Source: Candidatus Nanohaloarchaea archaeon (lineage in GTDB: Archaea > Nanohalarchaeota > Nanosalinia > Nanosalinales > Nanosalinaceae). Taken from it: a DNA stretch of 21,428 bases. The notes beneath the pieces are model-generated. The model was not told the origin of the DNA. It saw only the letters and a list, made by a program, of their open reading frames with translations, and did not search any database. The translations under genes were made by a program, and so were the position numbers. The DNA lies in the NCBI GenBank assembly GCA_046497485.1, contig JAWOFP010000010.1, positions 1 to 21,428 on the forward strand, read 5' to 3'. Positions 3,112 through 21,312 of the stretch are shown here, one piece after another (the first letter of the stretch is position 1; each line of letters opens with the position of its first letter).

Positions 3112-4160
3112 TGGTAACCTCTATGCTCAAAGACCTAATTCAAATTAATTCAGTAAGCGGGAAAGAAGAAGAAATCATAGAATATATCTACAGCTATGCA
3201 GAAGAGAAAAATTTTAATCCTCAGAAAATAGGGAGGAACGTGATTTTCAGCTTGGGAGATGGTGAAAAAAAGCTGATCTTAAACTCTCATATAGATACAG
3301 TTGAGGCCTCGGGAGACTGGGAAGTTGATCCGTTTGAAGCTGTAGAAAAAGATGGCAAGATCTATGGTTTAGGCAGCTCAGATAACAAGGGATCTGCGGC
3401 AGCAATGCTTAAAGCAGCTGAGAAAATAAAAGAATCAAATCTGGATAAAGAAGTAATTTTCACCTTTGTAGAAAGAGAAGAGCTTGATGGTTCTGGAACT
3501 AAAAAAGTGATAGATTGGCTCAAAGAAAACAAAGAGCTGGAAAAGTCCGCGGCAGTAATCGGAGAGCCAACAGGCTTAGAGAAAGTCTTGGAAGGATGCA
3601 AAGGTACATCATGGATAAAATTAACAACGAAGATGGAAGGCGGTCACGCATCTAAAGATTTGGAAAACCCGATCGAAGCAGTCTACAAAGTGCTGGAACA
3701 GTTCCAAGATAAGATGGAAAAATTTAATGAGCCTAAACCTAAAATTGAATTGACAAGCATAAAAGCGGGCGACAGCATAAATAAAATCCCTTCAAAAACT
3801 GTGGCAAAGTTCGATATTCGAACAGTTCCAGAGTTCACAGCTGAAGATGTAAAAGAGACCCTTGAAGAGATCACTGAAGGCCTAGAAGCAGAATCGGGTT
3901 TTGAATTCGCTGAGCAACCTTGCCCAGCTTCAAACAGCAAAGATTCTAATATAGTTAATTTTGTGAAGGAAAAAACGGATGCAGGTTCTGAGTTCGCTAA
4001 AGCTGCTAATGATTCATGCTTCTTCACAGAAAATAAAATTAATGCTGCAGTGATTGGACCAGGGCAGGAAGAAACAATTCACAAGCCTGATGAATACATA
4101 GAAAAATCCAAACTAAAGAAAGGCGTTAAAGTTTACAAGGAGATTGCTGAGACCTGGTGA
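3111..4160 (+). CDS. M20 family metallo-deacylase (ArgE/DapE-like)
   Basis: NSHIDTV, YGLGSSDNKG, EREE, VIGEPT, GGHAS, GPG..IHKPDEY motifs. Confidence 0.9.
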   Translation: MVTSMLKDLIQINSVSGKEEEIIEYIYSYAEEKNFNPQKIGRNVIFSLGDGEKKLILNSHIDTVEASGDWEVDPFEAVEKDGKIYGLGSSDNKGSAAAMLKAAEKIKESNLDKEVIFTFVEREELDGSGTKKVIDWLKENKELEKSAAVIGEPTGLEKVLEGCKGTSWIKLTTKMEGGHASKDLENPIEAVYKVLEQFQDKMEKFNEPKPKIELTSIKAGDSINKIPSKTVAKFDIRTVPEFTAEDVKETLEEITEGLEAESGFEFAEQPCPASNSKDSNIVNFVKEKTDAGSEFAKAANDSCFFTENKINAAVIGPGQEETIHKPDEYIEKSKLKKGVKVYKEIAETW

Positions 4161-4163
4161 TTA

Positions 4164-4296
4164 GAGTTCGTAGCTCAGCCTGGACAGAGCACTCGGCTTC
4201 TAAACCTCAAGTCTCTAGAAGAGACGGGGGCTGAGAAGATCTCTGATCTTCGAGAAGGATACCGAGTCGTCGAGGGTTCAAATCCCTCCGAACTCG
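4164..4296 (+). tRNA. tRNA-Arg(UCU) with 58-nt intron (approx. 4203-4260, position 37/38)
   Basis: Acceptor GAGTTCG/CGAACTC, D arm GCTC/GAGC, anticodon stem CTCGG/CCGAG with spliced loop CT-TCT-AA, T arm GAGGG-TTCAAAT-CCCTC, discriminator G. Confidence 0.92.
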
Positions 4297-4298
4297 TA

Positions 4299-4373
4299 AG
4301 GTCTGTAGCTCAGCTGGGACAGAGCAGATGGCTACGAACCATCAGGTCCTGGGTTCAAATCCCAGCAGGCCTG
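4299..4373 (+). tRNA. tRNA-Arg(ACG)
   Basis: Acceptor AGGTCTG/CAGGCCT, D arm GCTC/GAGC, anticodon stem GATGG/CCATC with loop CT-ACG-AA (anticodon 4334-4336), T arm CTGGG-TTCAAAT-CCCAG. Confidence 0.92.
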
Positions 4374-4411
4374 AAAATAAGTTTAAAACAACAAAGGAGG
4401 AAAAACTCAAC

Positions 4412-6034
4412 ATGACTAAAATAAAAAGCACACTTGCGGAGCTTGTCGAAGAACAAATAGGAATAGAAGTAACTGAAAACGATATTGAGAGGGCTGACAG
4501 GCACGCAGACTTCGCATATCCATGCATGGCTGCAAGCTCAGAACTTGGAAAAAGTCCGAGAGATATAGCTGAAGACCTATCCAACAACATTGAAGATGAT
4601 ATAATTGAATCGATGGAAGTAGCAGGCCCAGGATACCTAAACTTTCATTTAGATAGAGAAAAATACGCGGAAAAAATCGATGAAGAGTTAAGTTCTGAGG
4701 CTTTCGGAGTCAAACAAAAAGATGATAAAGTATTGGTAGAGTTCTCGTGTCCTAATCTGGCTAAGCCTATGCATATTGGTCATTTAAGGAATAATTTTTT
4801 AGGGGATTCTCTTCAGAGAATCATGCGTTTTGTCGGTCATGATGTGACTTCAGAAAACTATATTGGTGACTGGGGTACTAAGCACGGCCAGGTTATCTAT
4901 GCCTTCAAGAAATGGGGTTCGATGGAAGAATTTGAAGAAGATCCTATGGGCCATATGTATGAACTTTATGTTAAGCTCCATGATAAGGCCTCTGAGGAAG
5001 ATAAGCGTAAGTCTCGTGAATGGTCCAAAAAAATTGAAGAAGGAGACGAAGAAGCAGTTGAACTTTGGGAGATGTTCAGAGAGGCTACTATAGAGCATAA
5101 TGAAAGCGAGTATGAGAGAATGGGGATCAGTTTTGACCGTGTCACGGGAGAATCTGTAGTAGCAGAGGAAGCACAAGGAATAATTGAAGAAGGCCTTGAA
5201 AAAGGGATATTTCAGGAAGATGAAGATGGAAGTATCTATGTAGAGTTTGAGAAAGAAGAACTTCCTTCAACTGTGGTTAAGCGTGATGATGGATCTACAC
5301 TCTACCTTTCTAGAGATGTTGCAAATATCAGGAAGCGTGAACGCGAAGGATTTGATCAGAATCTTTACATCGTCGCAAATGAGCAGGATCTGCACTTCCA
5401 ACAGCTTTTCGCAATCGCTGAAAGATTTGGGATAGAGATCCACAGCGAGCACATATCTTATGGGATGCTTCATCTTCAAGACGGTTCGATATCATCAAGC
5501 AAAGGAAACATCATAACATTTGGAGAAGTAATGGATGAGGCAGTAGAAAAGGCCTCGGAAATAGAAGGTAGAGATATAGATAATGATGAAGCAGTAGGGC
5601 TTGGAGCATTAAAATACGCAAATCTATCAGTTTCCAGACCTAAAGACATTAGTTTCAGCTGGGAGCAAGTTCTCAGCTTTGAAGGAGATTCCGGTCCATA
5701 TCTTCAGTACTCGAACGTCCGAGCTAAAAGCATCTTGAGAGATGCCTCAAATTCAGGAAGTTTCGATGGAGAATTCAATGATCAGGAATATGAATTGTTG
5801 AAGAAGTTAGCAGAGTTCCCGGAAAAGGTTGAAGCTGCAGCTGAGCAGAGAGAACCTGCTAAGATCGCCAATTATCTTTCAACTCTATCTGAGGAGTTCA
5901 ATAGCTTCTACCATGAATGTGAAGTCCTAGGTTCAGAAGAGGAAGAGAAAAGGTTGAAACTGGTTGAACTATTTGTAGACGTCAGCGATCAAGGCCTGGA
6001 GTTGTTAGGAATTGAATCGTTGGATGAGATGTGA
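4412..6034 (+). CDS. argS: Arginine--tRNA ligase
   Basis: VAGPGYLNF, VEFSCPNLAKPMHIGHLRN (HIGH), NYIGDWG, FEGDSGPYLQY and DALR-type C-terminus. Start moved to ATG 4412 (AGGAGG at 4395-4400) because the longer ORF overlaps the tRNA. Confidence 0.97.
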   Translation: MTKIKSTLAELVEEQIGIEVTENDIERADRHADFAYPCMAASSELGKSPRDIAEDLSNNIEDDIIESMEVAGPGYLNFHLDREKYAEKIDEELSSEAFGVKQKDDKVLVEFSCPNLAKPMHIGHLRNNFLGDSLQRIMRFVGHDVTSENYIGDWGTKHGQVIYAFKKWGSMEEFEEDPMGHMYELYVKLHDKASEEDKRKSREWSKKIEEGDEEAVELWEMFREATIEHNESEYERMGISFDRVTGESVVAEEAQGIIEEGLEKGIFQEDEDGSIYVEFEKEELPSTVVKRDDGSTLYLSRDVANIRKREREGFDQNLYIVANEQDLHFQQLFAIAERFGIEIHSEHISYGMLHLQDGSISSSKGNIITFGEVMDEAVEKASEIEGRDIDNDEAVGLGALKYANLSVSRPKDISFSWEQVLSFEGDSGPYLQYSNVRAKSILRDASNSGSFDGEFNDQEYELLKKLAEFPEKVEAAAEQREPAKIANYLSTLSEEFNSFYHECEVLGSEEEEKRLKLVELFVDVSDQGLELLGIESLDEM

Positions 6035-6080
6035 CAGTAAATAAAAGAAATGGTTTCCAAATAATGAATGTGAACTAACA

Positions 6081-6287
6081 ATGGGGGAGCAGGATAACTA
6101 CTGGATAATCGAAATTTACAACGATGAGACCGTCAATGTCTCAGTTATGAGCGAAGAGGAAGCCCAGGCAACTCGAAAGATCAATGATGACTTCGAGGAC
6201 TGGCAGATGGCGCCTGTAGAAGAGGCCTCAGAAGAAGAAATGATCGAAAGAGCTGAGGATAAAGGCTACGAGCACGATCCTTGGTAG
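6081..6287 (+). CDS. Small acidic hypothetical protein
   Basis: 68 aa, D/E-rich like the rest of the proteome, fills the gap after argS. Confidence 0.75.
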   Translation: MGEQDNYWIIEIYNDETVNVSVMSEEEAQATRKINDDFEDWQMAPVEEASEEEMIERAEDKGYEHDPW

Positions 6288-6298
6288 ATTTAAGCTGA

Positions 6299-6583
6299 TT
6301 AAACCGTTCTTATATCTTCAAAATTATCTTGAGATCCTGATACATATCTTTTTCTAGGATAAAATCCTGTCTTGTCAATTACCTCTCCAAGAATAGTTTC
6401 AGAAGGCCCAAAAGGATGATTAACATCTCTAAAGGTTAGATCAATTCTGTAAAAATTCAGGTCAGCTGAGCCAAGTTCATAAGAATCAACTTCCTCGAGG
6501 TCTTCTACTCTGGAATCATTAATTATGTTTATCTTCTCAAATCCGTATTCAGTCACCAACGATTTGAAGATATCGCGATCCAT
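6299..6583 (-). CDS. Hypothetical protein
   Basis: 94 aa acidic ORF directly downstream of tRNA-Phe, no competing ORF. Confidence 0.6.
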   Translation of the reverse strand: MDRDIFKSLVTEYGFEKINIINDSRVEDLEEVDSYELGSADLNFYRIDLTFRDVNHPFGPSETILGEVIDKTGFYPRKRYVSGSQDNFEDIRTV

Positions 6584-6604: not shown

Positions 6605-6678
6605 TGGCCGAACCCGGATTTGAACCGGGGACAACTCCATCTTCAGTGAAGCGCTCTCCCAGGCTGAGCTATTCGGCC
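6605..6678 (-). tRNA. tRNA-Phe(GAA)
   Basis: Reverse complement folds GGCCGAA/TTCGGCC, anticodon arm CTTCA-CTGAAGA-TGGAG, T arm CCCGG-TTCAAAT-CCGGG. Confidence 0.95.
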
Positions 6679-7422: not shown

Positions 7423-8427
7423 ATGGGGGATCAAAAAGATACAAAAGAGCATGTAATACCAGGAACAGAGGAAGGTCATAAAGGCGAGACTGTTAGAGGA
7501 TATGACTTCAGGGGCGACTTTAACCTGGAGGATATGTTGGAGGCCTATGGAACAACGGGTTTTCAGGCCTCACACTTGAAAGAAGCAATTGACTTGGTCA
7601 AGGAGATGCAGGATGAAGATGCCAAGATTTTCTTAACGTTCACCTCAAATATTATTAGTTCAGGCCTCAGAGAAGCAATTGCATATCTTGTTAGAGAGGA
7701 CTATATTGATGTTGTGATTACTTCTTCAGGTAGCCATACAGAGGATGTTATTAAAACTGCCAAGCCTTTCAAAATGGGTGAGTGGGACGCTGATGAAGCA
7801 GAGCTGCGTGAAAGAGGAATTAATAGACTAGGCAATATCTATGTAGAATCCGATAACTATGTCTGGCTTGAGTCCTGGCTGAATAATGAGTTTTTCCCGG
7901 ACTTTTTTGATGAGGCGAAGATGCGTTCCCCTACTGAAGTAGCCCGAGAGATAGGTAAATCGGTTGGGGAAGATGAAGAATTAGATCATGAGGACTCTTT
8001 TCTCTACTGGGCCTATGAAAATGATGTATCTGTCTACTGTCCAGCATTAATCGATGCAGAGATTGGCGATTACATGTTCTATTACCGTCAGGAACAGGAC
8101 TCAGAAATCGGAATTGAGATACTTGATGACTGGGACAAGTTAATCCATGAAGCGATAGAGGCAGAGAAGACGGGTATTATCGCGGTAGGAGACGGTGTTC
8201 CGAAGCATCAAGCAATCATGTCGAACCTTTTTAGAGGCGGAACTGATTATGCAGTGTATATCTCGACAGGTATGGAGGGTGACGGAAGTCTAAGTGGTGC
8301 ACCACCTAAGGAAGCTGTTTCATGGGGTAAAATTAAGCAGAAGGCCAGAAATTATACTCAGGTAGAGGCTGAGGCAACTCTTGTCTTTCCTATGATTGTG
8401 GCAGAGGGTTTCAAGAATTATAATTGA
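7423..8427 (+). CDS. dys: Deoxyhypusine synthase
   Basis: TGFQAS, TSNIISSGLRE, INRLGN, GVPKH, DGSLSGAPPKEAVSWGKI (catalytic Lys), EATLVFP. Confidence 0.96.
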   Translation: MGDQKDTKEHVIPGTEEGHKGETVRGYDFRGDFNLEDMLEAYGTTGFQASHLKEAIDLVKEMQDEDAKIFLTFTSNIISSGLREAIAYLVREDYIDVVITSSGSHTEDVIKTAKPFKMGEWDADEAELRERGINRLGNIYVESDNYVWLESWLNNEFFPDFFDEAKMRSPTEVAREIGKSVGEDEELDHEDSFLYWAYENDVSVYCPALIDAEIGDYMFYYRQEQDSEIGIEILDDWDKLIHEAIEAEKTGIIAVGDGVPKHQAIMSNLFRGGTDYAVYISTGMEGDGSLSGAPPKEAVSWGKIKQKARNYTQVEAEATLVFPMIVAEGFKNYN

Positions 8428-13902: not shown

Positions 13903-14592
13903 TTACATCTGTTCTTCTGCTTCATGTATTAGATACATGTCAAGGAATCCGTAGGCCTGTTTACAGAAGAAAGGCAGGATTACGAATGCTACGGATGTTT
14001 CGAATGCTCCGAAGATTCCCGGTCCTGCTGGGTAAATTGTCTCACTCAAATACCAAACTGTTGGGTAAAGTACGAAGAACACTGAGATGTATGCTGAAAG
14101 CGTTGTGTAGCTTCTTGCAAGCACATCAGAGGTTTCTTTCGCCATTTCTCTGAGCGGTCCCCAGACTAGGTAGAATACTCCTAGGAGTAAGGCGTTACCT
14201 ATCCAGTATGCATAGGTCATTCCTGACTCCTGTGAAATGATTCCTGTAATTACCAGCATGAACTGTAGACCCATCAATGCGCCTAATAAGTCCCATCTGG
14301 TTTCTCTACCGTGCATGGCCGTGAGGCCTAAAGCCAGCAGAATTAGCGGTGTAGAAATCATCCAATCCATGTACCATCCGAAGTTACTCAACGCTGTTCC
14401 GTTGAGGAAGTTCAGATACATGATTCCCGACCAAGTTACAATAAAGAAGTGTATAATCGGGAATTTTAGAGGTACATTTTTCCACCATACCTTCCTGAGA
14501 AACAGGTAAAGCAGACCGCTTAGAAAAGCGGTTGCGATGTAAGCCATCAAGTAAGGTGTGCTGCCAGAAGCAGCAATGGCTTCATATACCAT
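13903..14592 (-). CDS. Xenorhodopsin (light-driven inward H+ pump, Nanosalina type)
   Basis: 7 TM; helix C WYMDWMISTPL (W73, D76, S80, A87), H48, helix G LPFFCKQAYGFLD with retinal Lys, Pro replacing BR D212, and cytoplasmic Asp. Confidence 0.95.
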   Translation of the reverse strand: MVYEAIAASGSTPYLMAYIATAFLSGLLYLFLRKVWWKNVPLKFPIIHFFIVTWSGIMYLNFLNGTALSNFGWYMDWMISTPLILLALGLTAMHGRETRWDLLGALMGLQFMLVITGIISQESGMTYAYWIGNALLLGVFYLVWGPLREMAKETSDVLARSYTTLSAYISVFFVLYPTVWYLSETIYPAGPGIFGAFETSVAFVILPFFCKQAYGFLDMYLIHEAEEQM

Positions 14593-21240: not shown

Positions 21241-21312
21241 CGCCCGCACAGGGATTTGAACCCTGGATCTGCACCTCCGCAAGGTGCCGTCTTTCCACTA
21301 GACCATGCGGGC
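21241..21312 (-). tRNA. tRNA-Arg(GCG)
   Basis: GCCCGCA/TGCGGGC acceptor, GCACC-TTGCGGA-GGTGC anticodon arm, CAGGG-TTCAAAT-CCCTG T arm. Confidence 0.95.

Follow-up and report, generated by a model that had tools for sequence, protein, structure and literature searches.

A gene for tRNA-Arg(ACG) is encoded on contig C46 of a nanohaloarchaeal genome, a 21,428-base contig that was analysed at its full length and is called the window below. The gene is intact, lies just upstream of the arginyl-tRNA synthetase (ArgRS) gene argS, shares its contig with the tRNA-Arg(GCG) gene, is rare among related genomes, and belongs to a genome in which no TadA-type gene was found. An arginine tRNA with adenosine at position 34 (A34) is itself of a known kind; what is unusual is its setting in an archaeal chromosome, with no TadA-type gene found. 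The genome (G000) is metagenome-assembled and comprises 967,558 bases in 66 contigs with 41.5% G+C, at 97% completeness and 2% contamination. The sequencing runs that hold parts of the window are labelled as brine, salt-lake, and hypersaline-lake metagenomes.

The tRNA-Arg(ACG) gene and its genome

The features that define the gene and its nearest functional counterpart are as follows.

4299..4373, + strand: tRNA-Arg(ACG), 75 nt, without intron and without encoded CCA (ARAGORN, Rfam, sequence)
4334..4336, + strand: anticodon A34-C35-G36, followed by A37-A38, where the UCG and GCG tRNAs of the clade have G37 (sequence, ARAGORN, Rfam)
21241..21312, - strand: tRNA-Arg(GCG), with G37 and loop UUGCGGA, 65.9 bits (ARAGORN, Rfam)

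The original prediction, made from the sequence alone, described an intact cloverleaf with an ACG anticodon in the loop CU-ACG-AA, and ARAGORN and the Rfam model RF00005 agree with it. The gene scores 63.5 bits with RF00005 (cut-off 29, E 6.4e-12) over positions 1-71 of the 71-position model and is not truncated. This score falls inside the range of the other four tRNAs in the window (51.2-65.9 bits). All stems pair, and the acceptor stem consists of seven pairs, including A1:U72 and a single U4:G69 wobble. The canonical U8, A14, G18-G19, U54-U55-C56, and A58 are kept, and the discriminator is G73. The anticodon loop reads C32-U33-A34-C35-G36-A37-A38, with A34 at position 4334, and A34-C35-G36 is an arginine-type anticodon (NCG or YCU). 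In the D loop, AGCUGGGACA, an A follows G18-G19; this A and G73 are both found in the UCG, UCU, and CCU tRNAs of the clade. Work on E. coli and yeast identified the D-loop A20 and a purine discriminator as elements used by ArgRS.

ARAGORN was run in intron mode over the genome and returned 41 tRNA calls, one of them a duplicate, among which acg is the sole anticodon that starts with A. The arginine tRNAs of the genome are UCG and CCU on contig C17 and UCU, ACG, and GCG on C46. In archaea, CGU and CGC are normally read by tRNA-Arg(GCG). A normal copy with G37 had been predicted at 21241-21312, where ARAGORN and Rfam both place it, and because it is on the same contig as the ACG tRNA, the two genes come from one genome. 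The last 191 bases of C46 (21238-21428) are identical to positions 1-191 of contig C23, and the two contigs join there. A naive census lists tRNA-Arg(GCG) twice owing to this 191-nt overlap of C23 and C46; it is a single gene.

The original prediction also raised the possibility that the UCG and CCG isoacceptors are missing. This does not hold for tRNA-Arg(UCG), which is present on C17, but appears to hold for tRNA-Arg(CCG), which is absent from the 41 ARAGORN calls and was not found in 50 family genomes by a loop-plus-T-loop pattern that intron-bearing genes would escape. The CCG pattern gave 13 matches in 11 of the 50 family genomes, compared to nine matches for a reversed-pattern control, and no CCG tRNA was among them. 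The normal arginine set of the family is GCG, UCG, UCU, and CCU. Because this set is complete here, the ACG tRNA is an extra isoacceptor and not a replacement. Descent from a mutated CCG tRNA was also considered and was rejected, as the pattern found no CCG tRNA in the 50 family genomes.

A BLAST search of 60 relatives with the ACG tRNA returned, as its best 29 loci, arginine tRNAs with tcg, tct, cct, or ccg anticodons and none with acg. The pattern NU-ACG-RA, placed at tRNA distance from a T loop, matched in 12 of 70 genomes of the phylum, and only the match in this genome is a tRNA with an ACG loop. By the loop pattern, the gene is the sole case found in the 70 phylum genomes.

A tRNA of this length outside the assembled genome can be seen in Logan contigs from four runs of four studies, which were aligned to positions 3900-4900 and have a depth of 2.6-8.7 in the bin 4308-4341. 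No run contains more than 0.40 of the sampled words of the window. Contig X1 (222 nt) covers 4261-4482 with five differences and no gap. Contig X6 (1676 nt) covers 3900-4779 with 96 differences and five gaps, all outside 4299-4373, and contig X7 matches exactly over 4364-4468. Other contigs of the same runs depart right after tRNA-UCU, with loose ends at 4287-4301, and represent relatives without the extra tRNA. Since X1 and X6 span the tRNA without a gap inside 4299-4373, a tRNA-sized insert of the same length is present in at least two other populations.

The TadA-type model PF14437 has no match in the genome, and the same search was positive in 12 of 14 control genomes. PF02137 (ADAT1/ADAR-type) and PF18785 (Inv-AAD) have no match in the genome either. 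PF00383 matches two open frames, and a six-frame regular-expression search for [HC][AS]E..PCxxC returned the same two and no others. Both of these cytidine deaminase (CDA)-fold proteins are of the CAE type, and in NCBIfam both match models of cytidine deaminases best. CAE is the motif of nucleoside cytidine deaminases, and TadA has HAE. One of the two, on contig C21, is an ordinary cytidine deaminase (NF004064, 97.8 bits, cut-off 74). The other is the following.

C50, about 5968-6471 (L067:1384-1887), - strand: divergent cytidine-deaminase-like protein, 168 aa, with CAE..PCGAC, Pfam 24.9 bits (cut-off 25) (profile search)

The PDB matches of both proteins are cytidine deaminases and, for the ordinary one, also blasticidin-S deaminase. 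Close orthologs of the divergent protein (62-85% identity) occur in 3 of the 49 other family genomes, namely G063, G036 (with one in-frame TAG), and G016, and these three genomes are without the ACG tRNA. The profiles and the six-frame search agree with the earlier statement that archaea generally lack TadA, and the CDA-fold deaminases it named as worth searching for turn out to be two proteins of the cytidine-deaminase type. With the genome 97% complete, the absence of a TadA-type gene is likely and not proven. Judged by its sequence, the genome holds no A34 deaminase candidate with positive evidence.

Locus and origin

The ACG tRNA stands between a second arginine tRNA and argS. The features around it are listed here.

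4130..4139, + strand: TATA-like box AGTTTACAAG at about -33 of tRNA-Arg(UCU), putative promoter of the tRNA pair (strict-box search)
4164..4296, + strand: tRNA-Arg(UCU) with a 58-nt intron at about 4203-4260 (Rfam 51.2 bits, ARAGORN intron mode)
4297..4298, + strand: 2-nt spacer (TA) between the UCU and ACG tRNAs (sequence)
4380..4389, + strand: TATA-like box AGTTTAAAAC, with TTTAAAA at -30 relative to the argS ATG, putative leaderless-type argS promoter (spacing in relatives)
4412..6034, + strand: argS, arginyl-tRNA synthetase, 540 aa (Pfam tRNA-synt_1d (5.5e-65), DALR_1, Arg_tRNA_synt_N)
6605..6678, - strand: tRNA-Phe(GAA), downstream neighbour of argS (ARAGORN, Rfam)

The limits of the UCU intron were taken from contigs of intron-less relatives, which join 4202 to 4261. 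The 50 nt before the ACG tRNA, which are the 3' exon of tRNA-UCU, contain no TATA-like box. The strict box [AG]TTT[AT][AC]A[AG] occurs at -45 to -22 of 7 of the 38 tRNA genes of this genome and at 1.4% of 5000 random sites, so that TATA-like boxes are enriched ~13-fold before its tRNA genes. Given that the 2-nt spacer has no room for a box and that a box is found at -33 of tRNA-UCU, the UCU and ACG tRNAs are probably co-transcribed. The promoter of tRNA-UCU must be active because its codon AGA makes up 56.6% of the arginine codons.

The end of the ACG tRNA and the argS ATG are 38 nt apart. In 24 of 29 relatives, a TTTTGAA-type box is located 26-31 nt before the argS ATG, and the same spacing is kept here within the 38-nt gap. 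This is the distance at which the TATA box of a leaderless archaeal mRNA stands from its start codon. This box of its own at conserved spacing implies an independent leaderless argS transcript. The two tRNAs would form one transcription unit, and argS another.

The reading frame of argS stays open through the ACG tRNA, and the long open reading frame would begin M-A-T, with ACG as codon 3. Among 20 related ArgRS proteins from a set of 5.8 billion proteins, coverage of the 70-residue query is at most 60%, and the five examined begin at the true ATG.

The ACG tRNA sits in the core chromosome and not in a mobile element. The genes of the locus encode an arginase-family protein, an M20 peptidase, ArgRS, deoxyhypusine synthase, topoisomerase VI A and B, a RIO kinase, aIF-1A, and NMD3, and argS orthologs are present in 49 of 50 family genomes, this one included. 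A tRNA array of the virus type is not seen: only two tRNAs are adjacent, five tRNAs occur in 21.4 kb, and the flanks are housekeeping genes. Near argS in the loci of the 29 relatives, a tct tRNA is found in 13 and a gaa tRNA in 14.

Linkage of an ArgRS gene with arginine tRNAs recurs in the family in differing arrangements. In L007 (G033:C3:283-918) and L026 (G030:C97:4-342), tRNA-Arg(UCG) and then tRNA-Arg(UCU) stand in tandem directly behind the 3' end of an ArgRS-like gene. Compared with the ArgRS proteins of other genera in the family, that of this genome shows 71-73% identity, but it is only 64-65% (G001, G002) or 41-43% (G003, G004) identical to those of its own genus. For the deoxyhypusine synthase gene (7423-8424), the same-genus genome G001 is among the best matches, at 86%. 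Several family genomes have two or more ArgRS types. These identities suggest that the argS locus may have undergone replacement or recombination. Among metagenome ArgRS proteins, P0004 has the first ~100 and last ~100 residues in common with P0003, and by eye its middle is of the P0002 type; P0004 is either a recombinant between ArgRS types or a chimeric assembly.

The body of the ACG tRNA is that of the clade's arginine tRNAs, with the D arm GTAGCTCAGC..GGACAGAGC and the variable loop AGGTC, and its T arm is identical to those of the UCU tRNAs of L023 and L024. Its best matches are UCU and UCG tRNAs of the family at 77-79%, with a maximum of 79% over the ARAGORN tRNAs of the genome and the loci collected to that point. 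The ACG tRNA has median identities of 73-75% with the three classes UCG, UCU, and CCU, compared to 82% between UCG and UCU and 84-87% within a class; this count omits the genome's own UCU tRNA, for which the ARAGORN intron call is wrong. Aligned in register with the adjacent UCU tRNA, the ACG tRNA is identical at 50 of 75 positions. The agreement is 16/18 in the D arm and 7/7 in the T loop, and falls to 6/10 in the T stem, 4/10 in the anticodon stem, and 5/14 in the acceptor. The stems of the ACG tRNA pair with different bases than those of its neighbor, and the gene appears to have a long separate history under structural constraint.

Two origins had been put forward, duplication of the adjacent tRNA-Arg(UCU) with an anticodon shift, or transfer. 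A recent duplication is contradicted by the 50/75 identity and by the differing acceptor and anticodon stems. The match to UCU in the D arm and T loop is a family trait, as it is common to all arginine tRNAs of the clade. A transfer from bacteria fares no better, for the body is the clade's own type; bacterial import was ruled out by this native body together with the lack of an encoded CCA. With at most 79% identity to any tRNA and 50/75 to UCU, the gene is neither a recent copy nor a bacterial import.

Exact scans were made with the anticodon arm, leaving position 34 open. Metagenome contigs yielded one unrelated CCA-ended tRNA-Arg(ACG), L065, GTDB genome contigs yielded no match, and viral contigs yielded 19 loci in phage-type arrays, four of them with a tRNA-Arg(ACG). 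No homolog of the whole gene is among these anticodon-arm matches. L065, which is bacterial or phage-like, shares 78% identity with the ACG tRNA, no more than the native tRNAs do; its D arm contains GGATTAGAGC, and its CCA is encoded. A scan with the T arm and acceptor half gave 20 GTDB loci, whose tRNAs, among them Ile, Arg(CCG), Arg(GCG), and Val, have only the generic GGGCCTG/CAGGCCC acceptor in common with it. None of the 12 GTDB loci short enough to align is more than 76% identical to the ACG tRNA. Viral contigs scanned with either half of the tRNA gave zero matches. The gene may be an old paralog that other lineages have lost, may have changed fast once duplicated, or may have come by transfer from an unsampled archaeon.

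Proposed decoding and alternatives

The reading that we prefer, and hold with middling confidence, is that of a lineage-specific spare tRNA that is co-transcribed with tRNA-UCU, charged with arginine, and reads mainly CGU by an unmodified A34. We infer its transcription, charging, lack of modification, and decoding from sequence. Transcription from the promoter of tRNA-UCU, a gene 2 nt upstream, would produce a two-tRNA precursor that includes the ACG tRNA. RNase P and tRNase Z would then release the ACG tRNA, and CCA would be added. The ArgRS encoded 38 nt downstream would charge it with arginine, as it keeps the C35, G36, D-loop A after G18-G19, and G73 of the clade's other arginine tRNAs. 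With no A34 deaminase, CGU would be read mainly through an A34:U pair, and CGC perhaps weakly. The ACG tRNA cannot miscode because all four CGN codons specify arginine. Since it is redundant with the GCG tRNA, its benefit, if any, would be extra supply for CGU, the commonest CGN codon.

Two published accounts support such decoding. An A34 left unmodified favours U as its partner and accepts C to a modest degree (PMC11066159), and Mollicutes have a working tRNA-Arg(ACG) that is not deaminated (PMC3711424). PMC11066159 describes natural decoding by unmodified A34 as 'exceedingly rare', a question studied with engineered tRNAs.

The arginine codons of 701 long open frames are AGA 56.6%, AGG 20.1%, CGT 8.0%, CGA 7.2%, CGG 4.9%, and CGC 3.1%. 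In argS, 8 of 24 arginine codons are CGN, and 6 of those 8 are CGT. The claim that CGT appears to be the commonest CGN codon in argS is therefore correct as a count. As a sign of a special preference it fails, since a bias of U over C at the third position is genome-wide and CGT is also preferred in relatives without this tRNA. CCT accounts for 49% compared to 6% for CCC, and ACT for 35% compared to 15% for ACC, so that the excess of CGT over CGC is an instance of the general bias. Relatives without the ACG tRNA use CGT for 16 of 24 (G067) and 11 of 17 (G022) CGN codons. The codon counts are compatible with a dedicated reader of CGU but do not call for one.

A number of observations weigh against the proposed decoding. 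CGN codons are 23% of arginine codons and CGT only 8.0%, so the demand for an ACG tRNA is small, and the tRNA is redundant with tRNA-Arg(GCG). It is missing from the 29 syntenic argS loci of relatives, and the 69 further phylum genomes yielded no tRNA with an ACG loop, which leaves one metagenome-assembled genome. A37 after G36 is atypical compared to the archaeal CGN-reading tRNAs examined, which have G37, and makes decoding efficiency uncertain. A1:U72 sets it apart from the other arginine tRNAs of the genome; this pair is also found in the genome's tRNA-Gln and in one tRNA-Met(CAT) gene, which we take to be the initiator. Folded by minimum energy, the bare sequence does not give a cloverleaf, a frequent outcome for tRNA transcripts in silico that is uninformative for a tRNA. 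None of the 40 difference rows listed for the related contigs falls at 4334, and with 135 further rows these contigs are weak evidence on that base. None of the runs listed as containing parts of the window is recorded as RNA.

Several of these points would also fit a neutral passenger, a redundant arginine tRNA paralog that drifted to ACG, is perhaps transcribed, has no measurable role in translation, and is heading for loss. We regard this as possible but rather unlikely. Drift to ACG would be harmless because the whole CGN box is arginine, the gene duplicates what GCG and UCG already provide, CGN use is low, and its occurrence in one of 70 phylum genomes and its atypical A37 and A1:U72 suit a gene on its way out. 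The preference for CGT, no stronger here than in G067 and G022, points the same way. Decay, however, would bring mismatches, and all four stems are intact despite many two-sided changes relative to every paralog. A tRNA of the same length persists in the X6 population, which is ~11% diverged over 880 nt, and the covariance score is on par with those of essential tRNAs.

It is improbable that the A at 4334 stems from an error in assembly or consensus, or from a minority variant, with CCG, UCG, or GCG as the true anticodon, which would make the gene an ordinary extra isoacceptor. The metagenomic source of the genome, the empty CCG slot here and in the family, and the partial coverage by any one run (no more than 0.40 of the sampled words) leave room for such an error. 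The contigs of four studies cover the tRNA, and position 4334 is not among the 40 difference rows listed, which is weak evidence given the 135 further rows. A consensus error at exactly this base is improbable a priori, and the absence of CCG by pattern from 50 family genomes means that CCG is not the expected state. The tRNA is unusual whatever its base 34, with A37 and at most 79% identity to its paralogs.

If a non-TadA enzyme deaminated A34 to inosine, for which the 168-aa protein on C50 is the only candidate seen, the result would be an ICG-style reader of CGU, CGC, and CGA that arose independently. The loop CUACGAA had been called the bacterial tRNA-Arg(ICG) loop, and the identical loop in the bacterial or phage-type tRNA-Arg(ACG) genes L065, L077, and L085 agrees with this. 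That likeness, and the presence of a second, divergent CDA-fold protein beside the ordinary cytidine deaminase, are what speak for inosine. We nevertheless consider it very unlikely. Both CDA-fold proteins carry the CAE motif and match cytidine deaminases in the PDB, one also blasticidin-S deaminase; orthologs of the divergent protein occur in G063, G036, and G016, all without the ACG tRNA; the TadA-type, ADAT1/ADAR-type, and Inv-AAD models have no match; and I34 is reported missing in archaea in PMC11066159, PMC8007984, and PMC8266599.

Equally far-fetched is a non-decoding role tied to the place before argS, for example as a processing signal, in sensing for argS expression, or in donating arginine to a transferase: the argS start is only 38 nt downstream and ArgRS/Arg-tRNA linkage is recurrent (UCU upstream of argS in 13 of 29 loci, UCG-UCU tandems after an ArgRS-like gene in G033 and G030), but argS keeps its own TATA-like box at the spacing of 24 of 29 relatives, relatives do without the ACG tRNA, and CGN codons have not been purged from argS (8 of its 24 arginine codons).

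Relation to known A34 arginine tRNAs

ANN tRNA genes and the A34 deaminase are stated to be missing in archaea in PMC11066159, PMC8007984, and PMC8266599, as the original prediction had said of archaea generally. Most bacteria with tRNA-Arg(ACG) lack tRNA-Arg(GCG), according to PMC8007984. The bacterial system of tRNA-Arg(ACG), converted to ICG by TadA, has a loop CU-ACG-AA, with A37 and A38, identical to that of the nanohaloarchaeal gene. The anticodon arm GAUGG/CCAUC and its loop are also found in the CCA-ended L065 tRNA and in the viral arrays L077, L085, and L090. Unlike the bacterial ICG system, the nanohaloarchaeal genome is without a TadA-type gene, the tRNA has a native body, CCA is not encoded, and a GCG tRNA coexists.

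The Mollicutes, as described by Yokobori et al. 2013 (PMC3711424), offer another likeness: an A34 arginine tRNA that works while scarcely or not at all deaminated, in a small genome without CCG and with all CGN codons as arginine. The Mollicutes tRNA is what remains of an ICG system whose tadA has decayed. Here, by comparison, the ACG tRNA appears to have been gained atop a complete GCG and UCG set, and neither an ACG tRNA in relatives nor a TadA-type gene in the genome was found.

A third group comes from another archaeal phylum, that of genome G058, where the pattern matches in 14 of 329 genomes and a real tRNA-Arg(acg) is present in six. These six cases are L092, L095, L097, L098, L099, and L102 (genomes G142, G215, G219, G223, G225, and G315). 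Each lies in a dense array of 6-18 tRNAs per 3 kb that resembles the arrays of viral contigs (L075, L077, L085, L090), and these arrays could be proviruses, plasmids, or mis-binned phage. The ACG tRNA directly follows a tRNA-Arg(UCU) in L090 and L102 and is ~100 nt from one in L092, much as in the nanohaloarchaeal pair. The bodies of the array tRNAs, however, are unlike the nanohaloarchaeal arginine type, and CCA is encoded in L102 and in some of the viral ones. The nanohaloarchaeal gene, in contrast, is one of two adjacent tRNAs on a core chromosome and has the clade's own body. The six genomes suggest that ACG tRNAs are not vanishingly rare in archaeal assemblies, but in that phylum they occur in virus-like arrays.

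The gene described here is chromosomal, of native type, intact, and located beside a G34 isoacceptor, and is thus a clean counter-example to the literature claim that archaea have no A34 tRNA genes. It comes from a single metagenome-assembled genome, and the cell seemingly does not need the tRNA. It is also an example of a new isoacceptor arising safely within a four-codon box. If expressed, it would be a rare natural case of decoding by unmodified A34, and the absence of ANN tRNAs from archaea would reflect efficiency or history and not an absolute bar. If the inosine reading were true, this archaeon would have an independently evolved, bacterial-style ICG reader beside the archaeal GCG reader.

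Elsewhere in the window, a bacteriorhodopsin-family gene (13903-14592, - strand, Pfam 1.3e-38) adjoins two Na+/H+ exchanger genes with TrkA-N domains, which is ordinary for a halophile.

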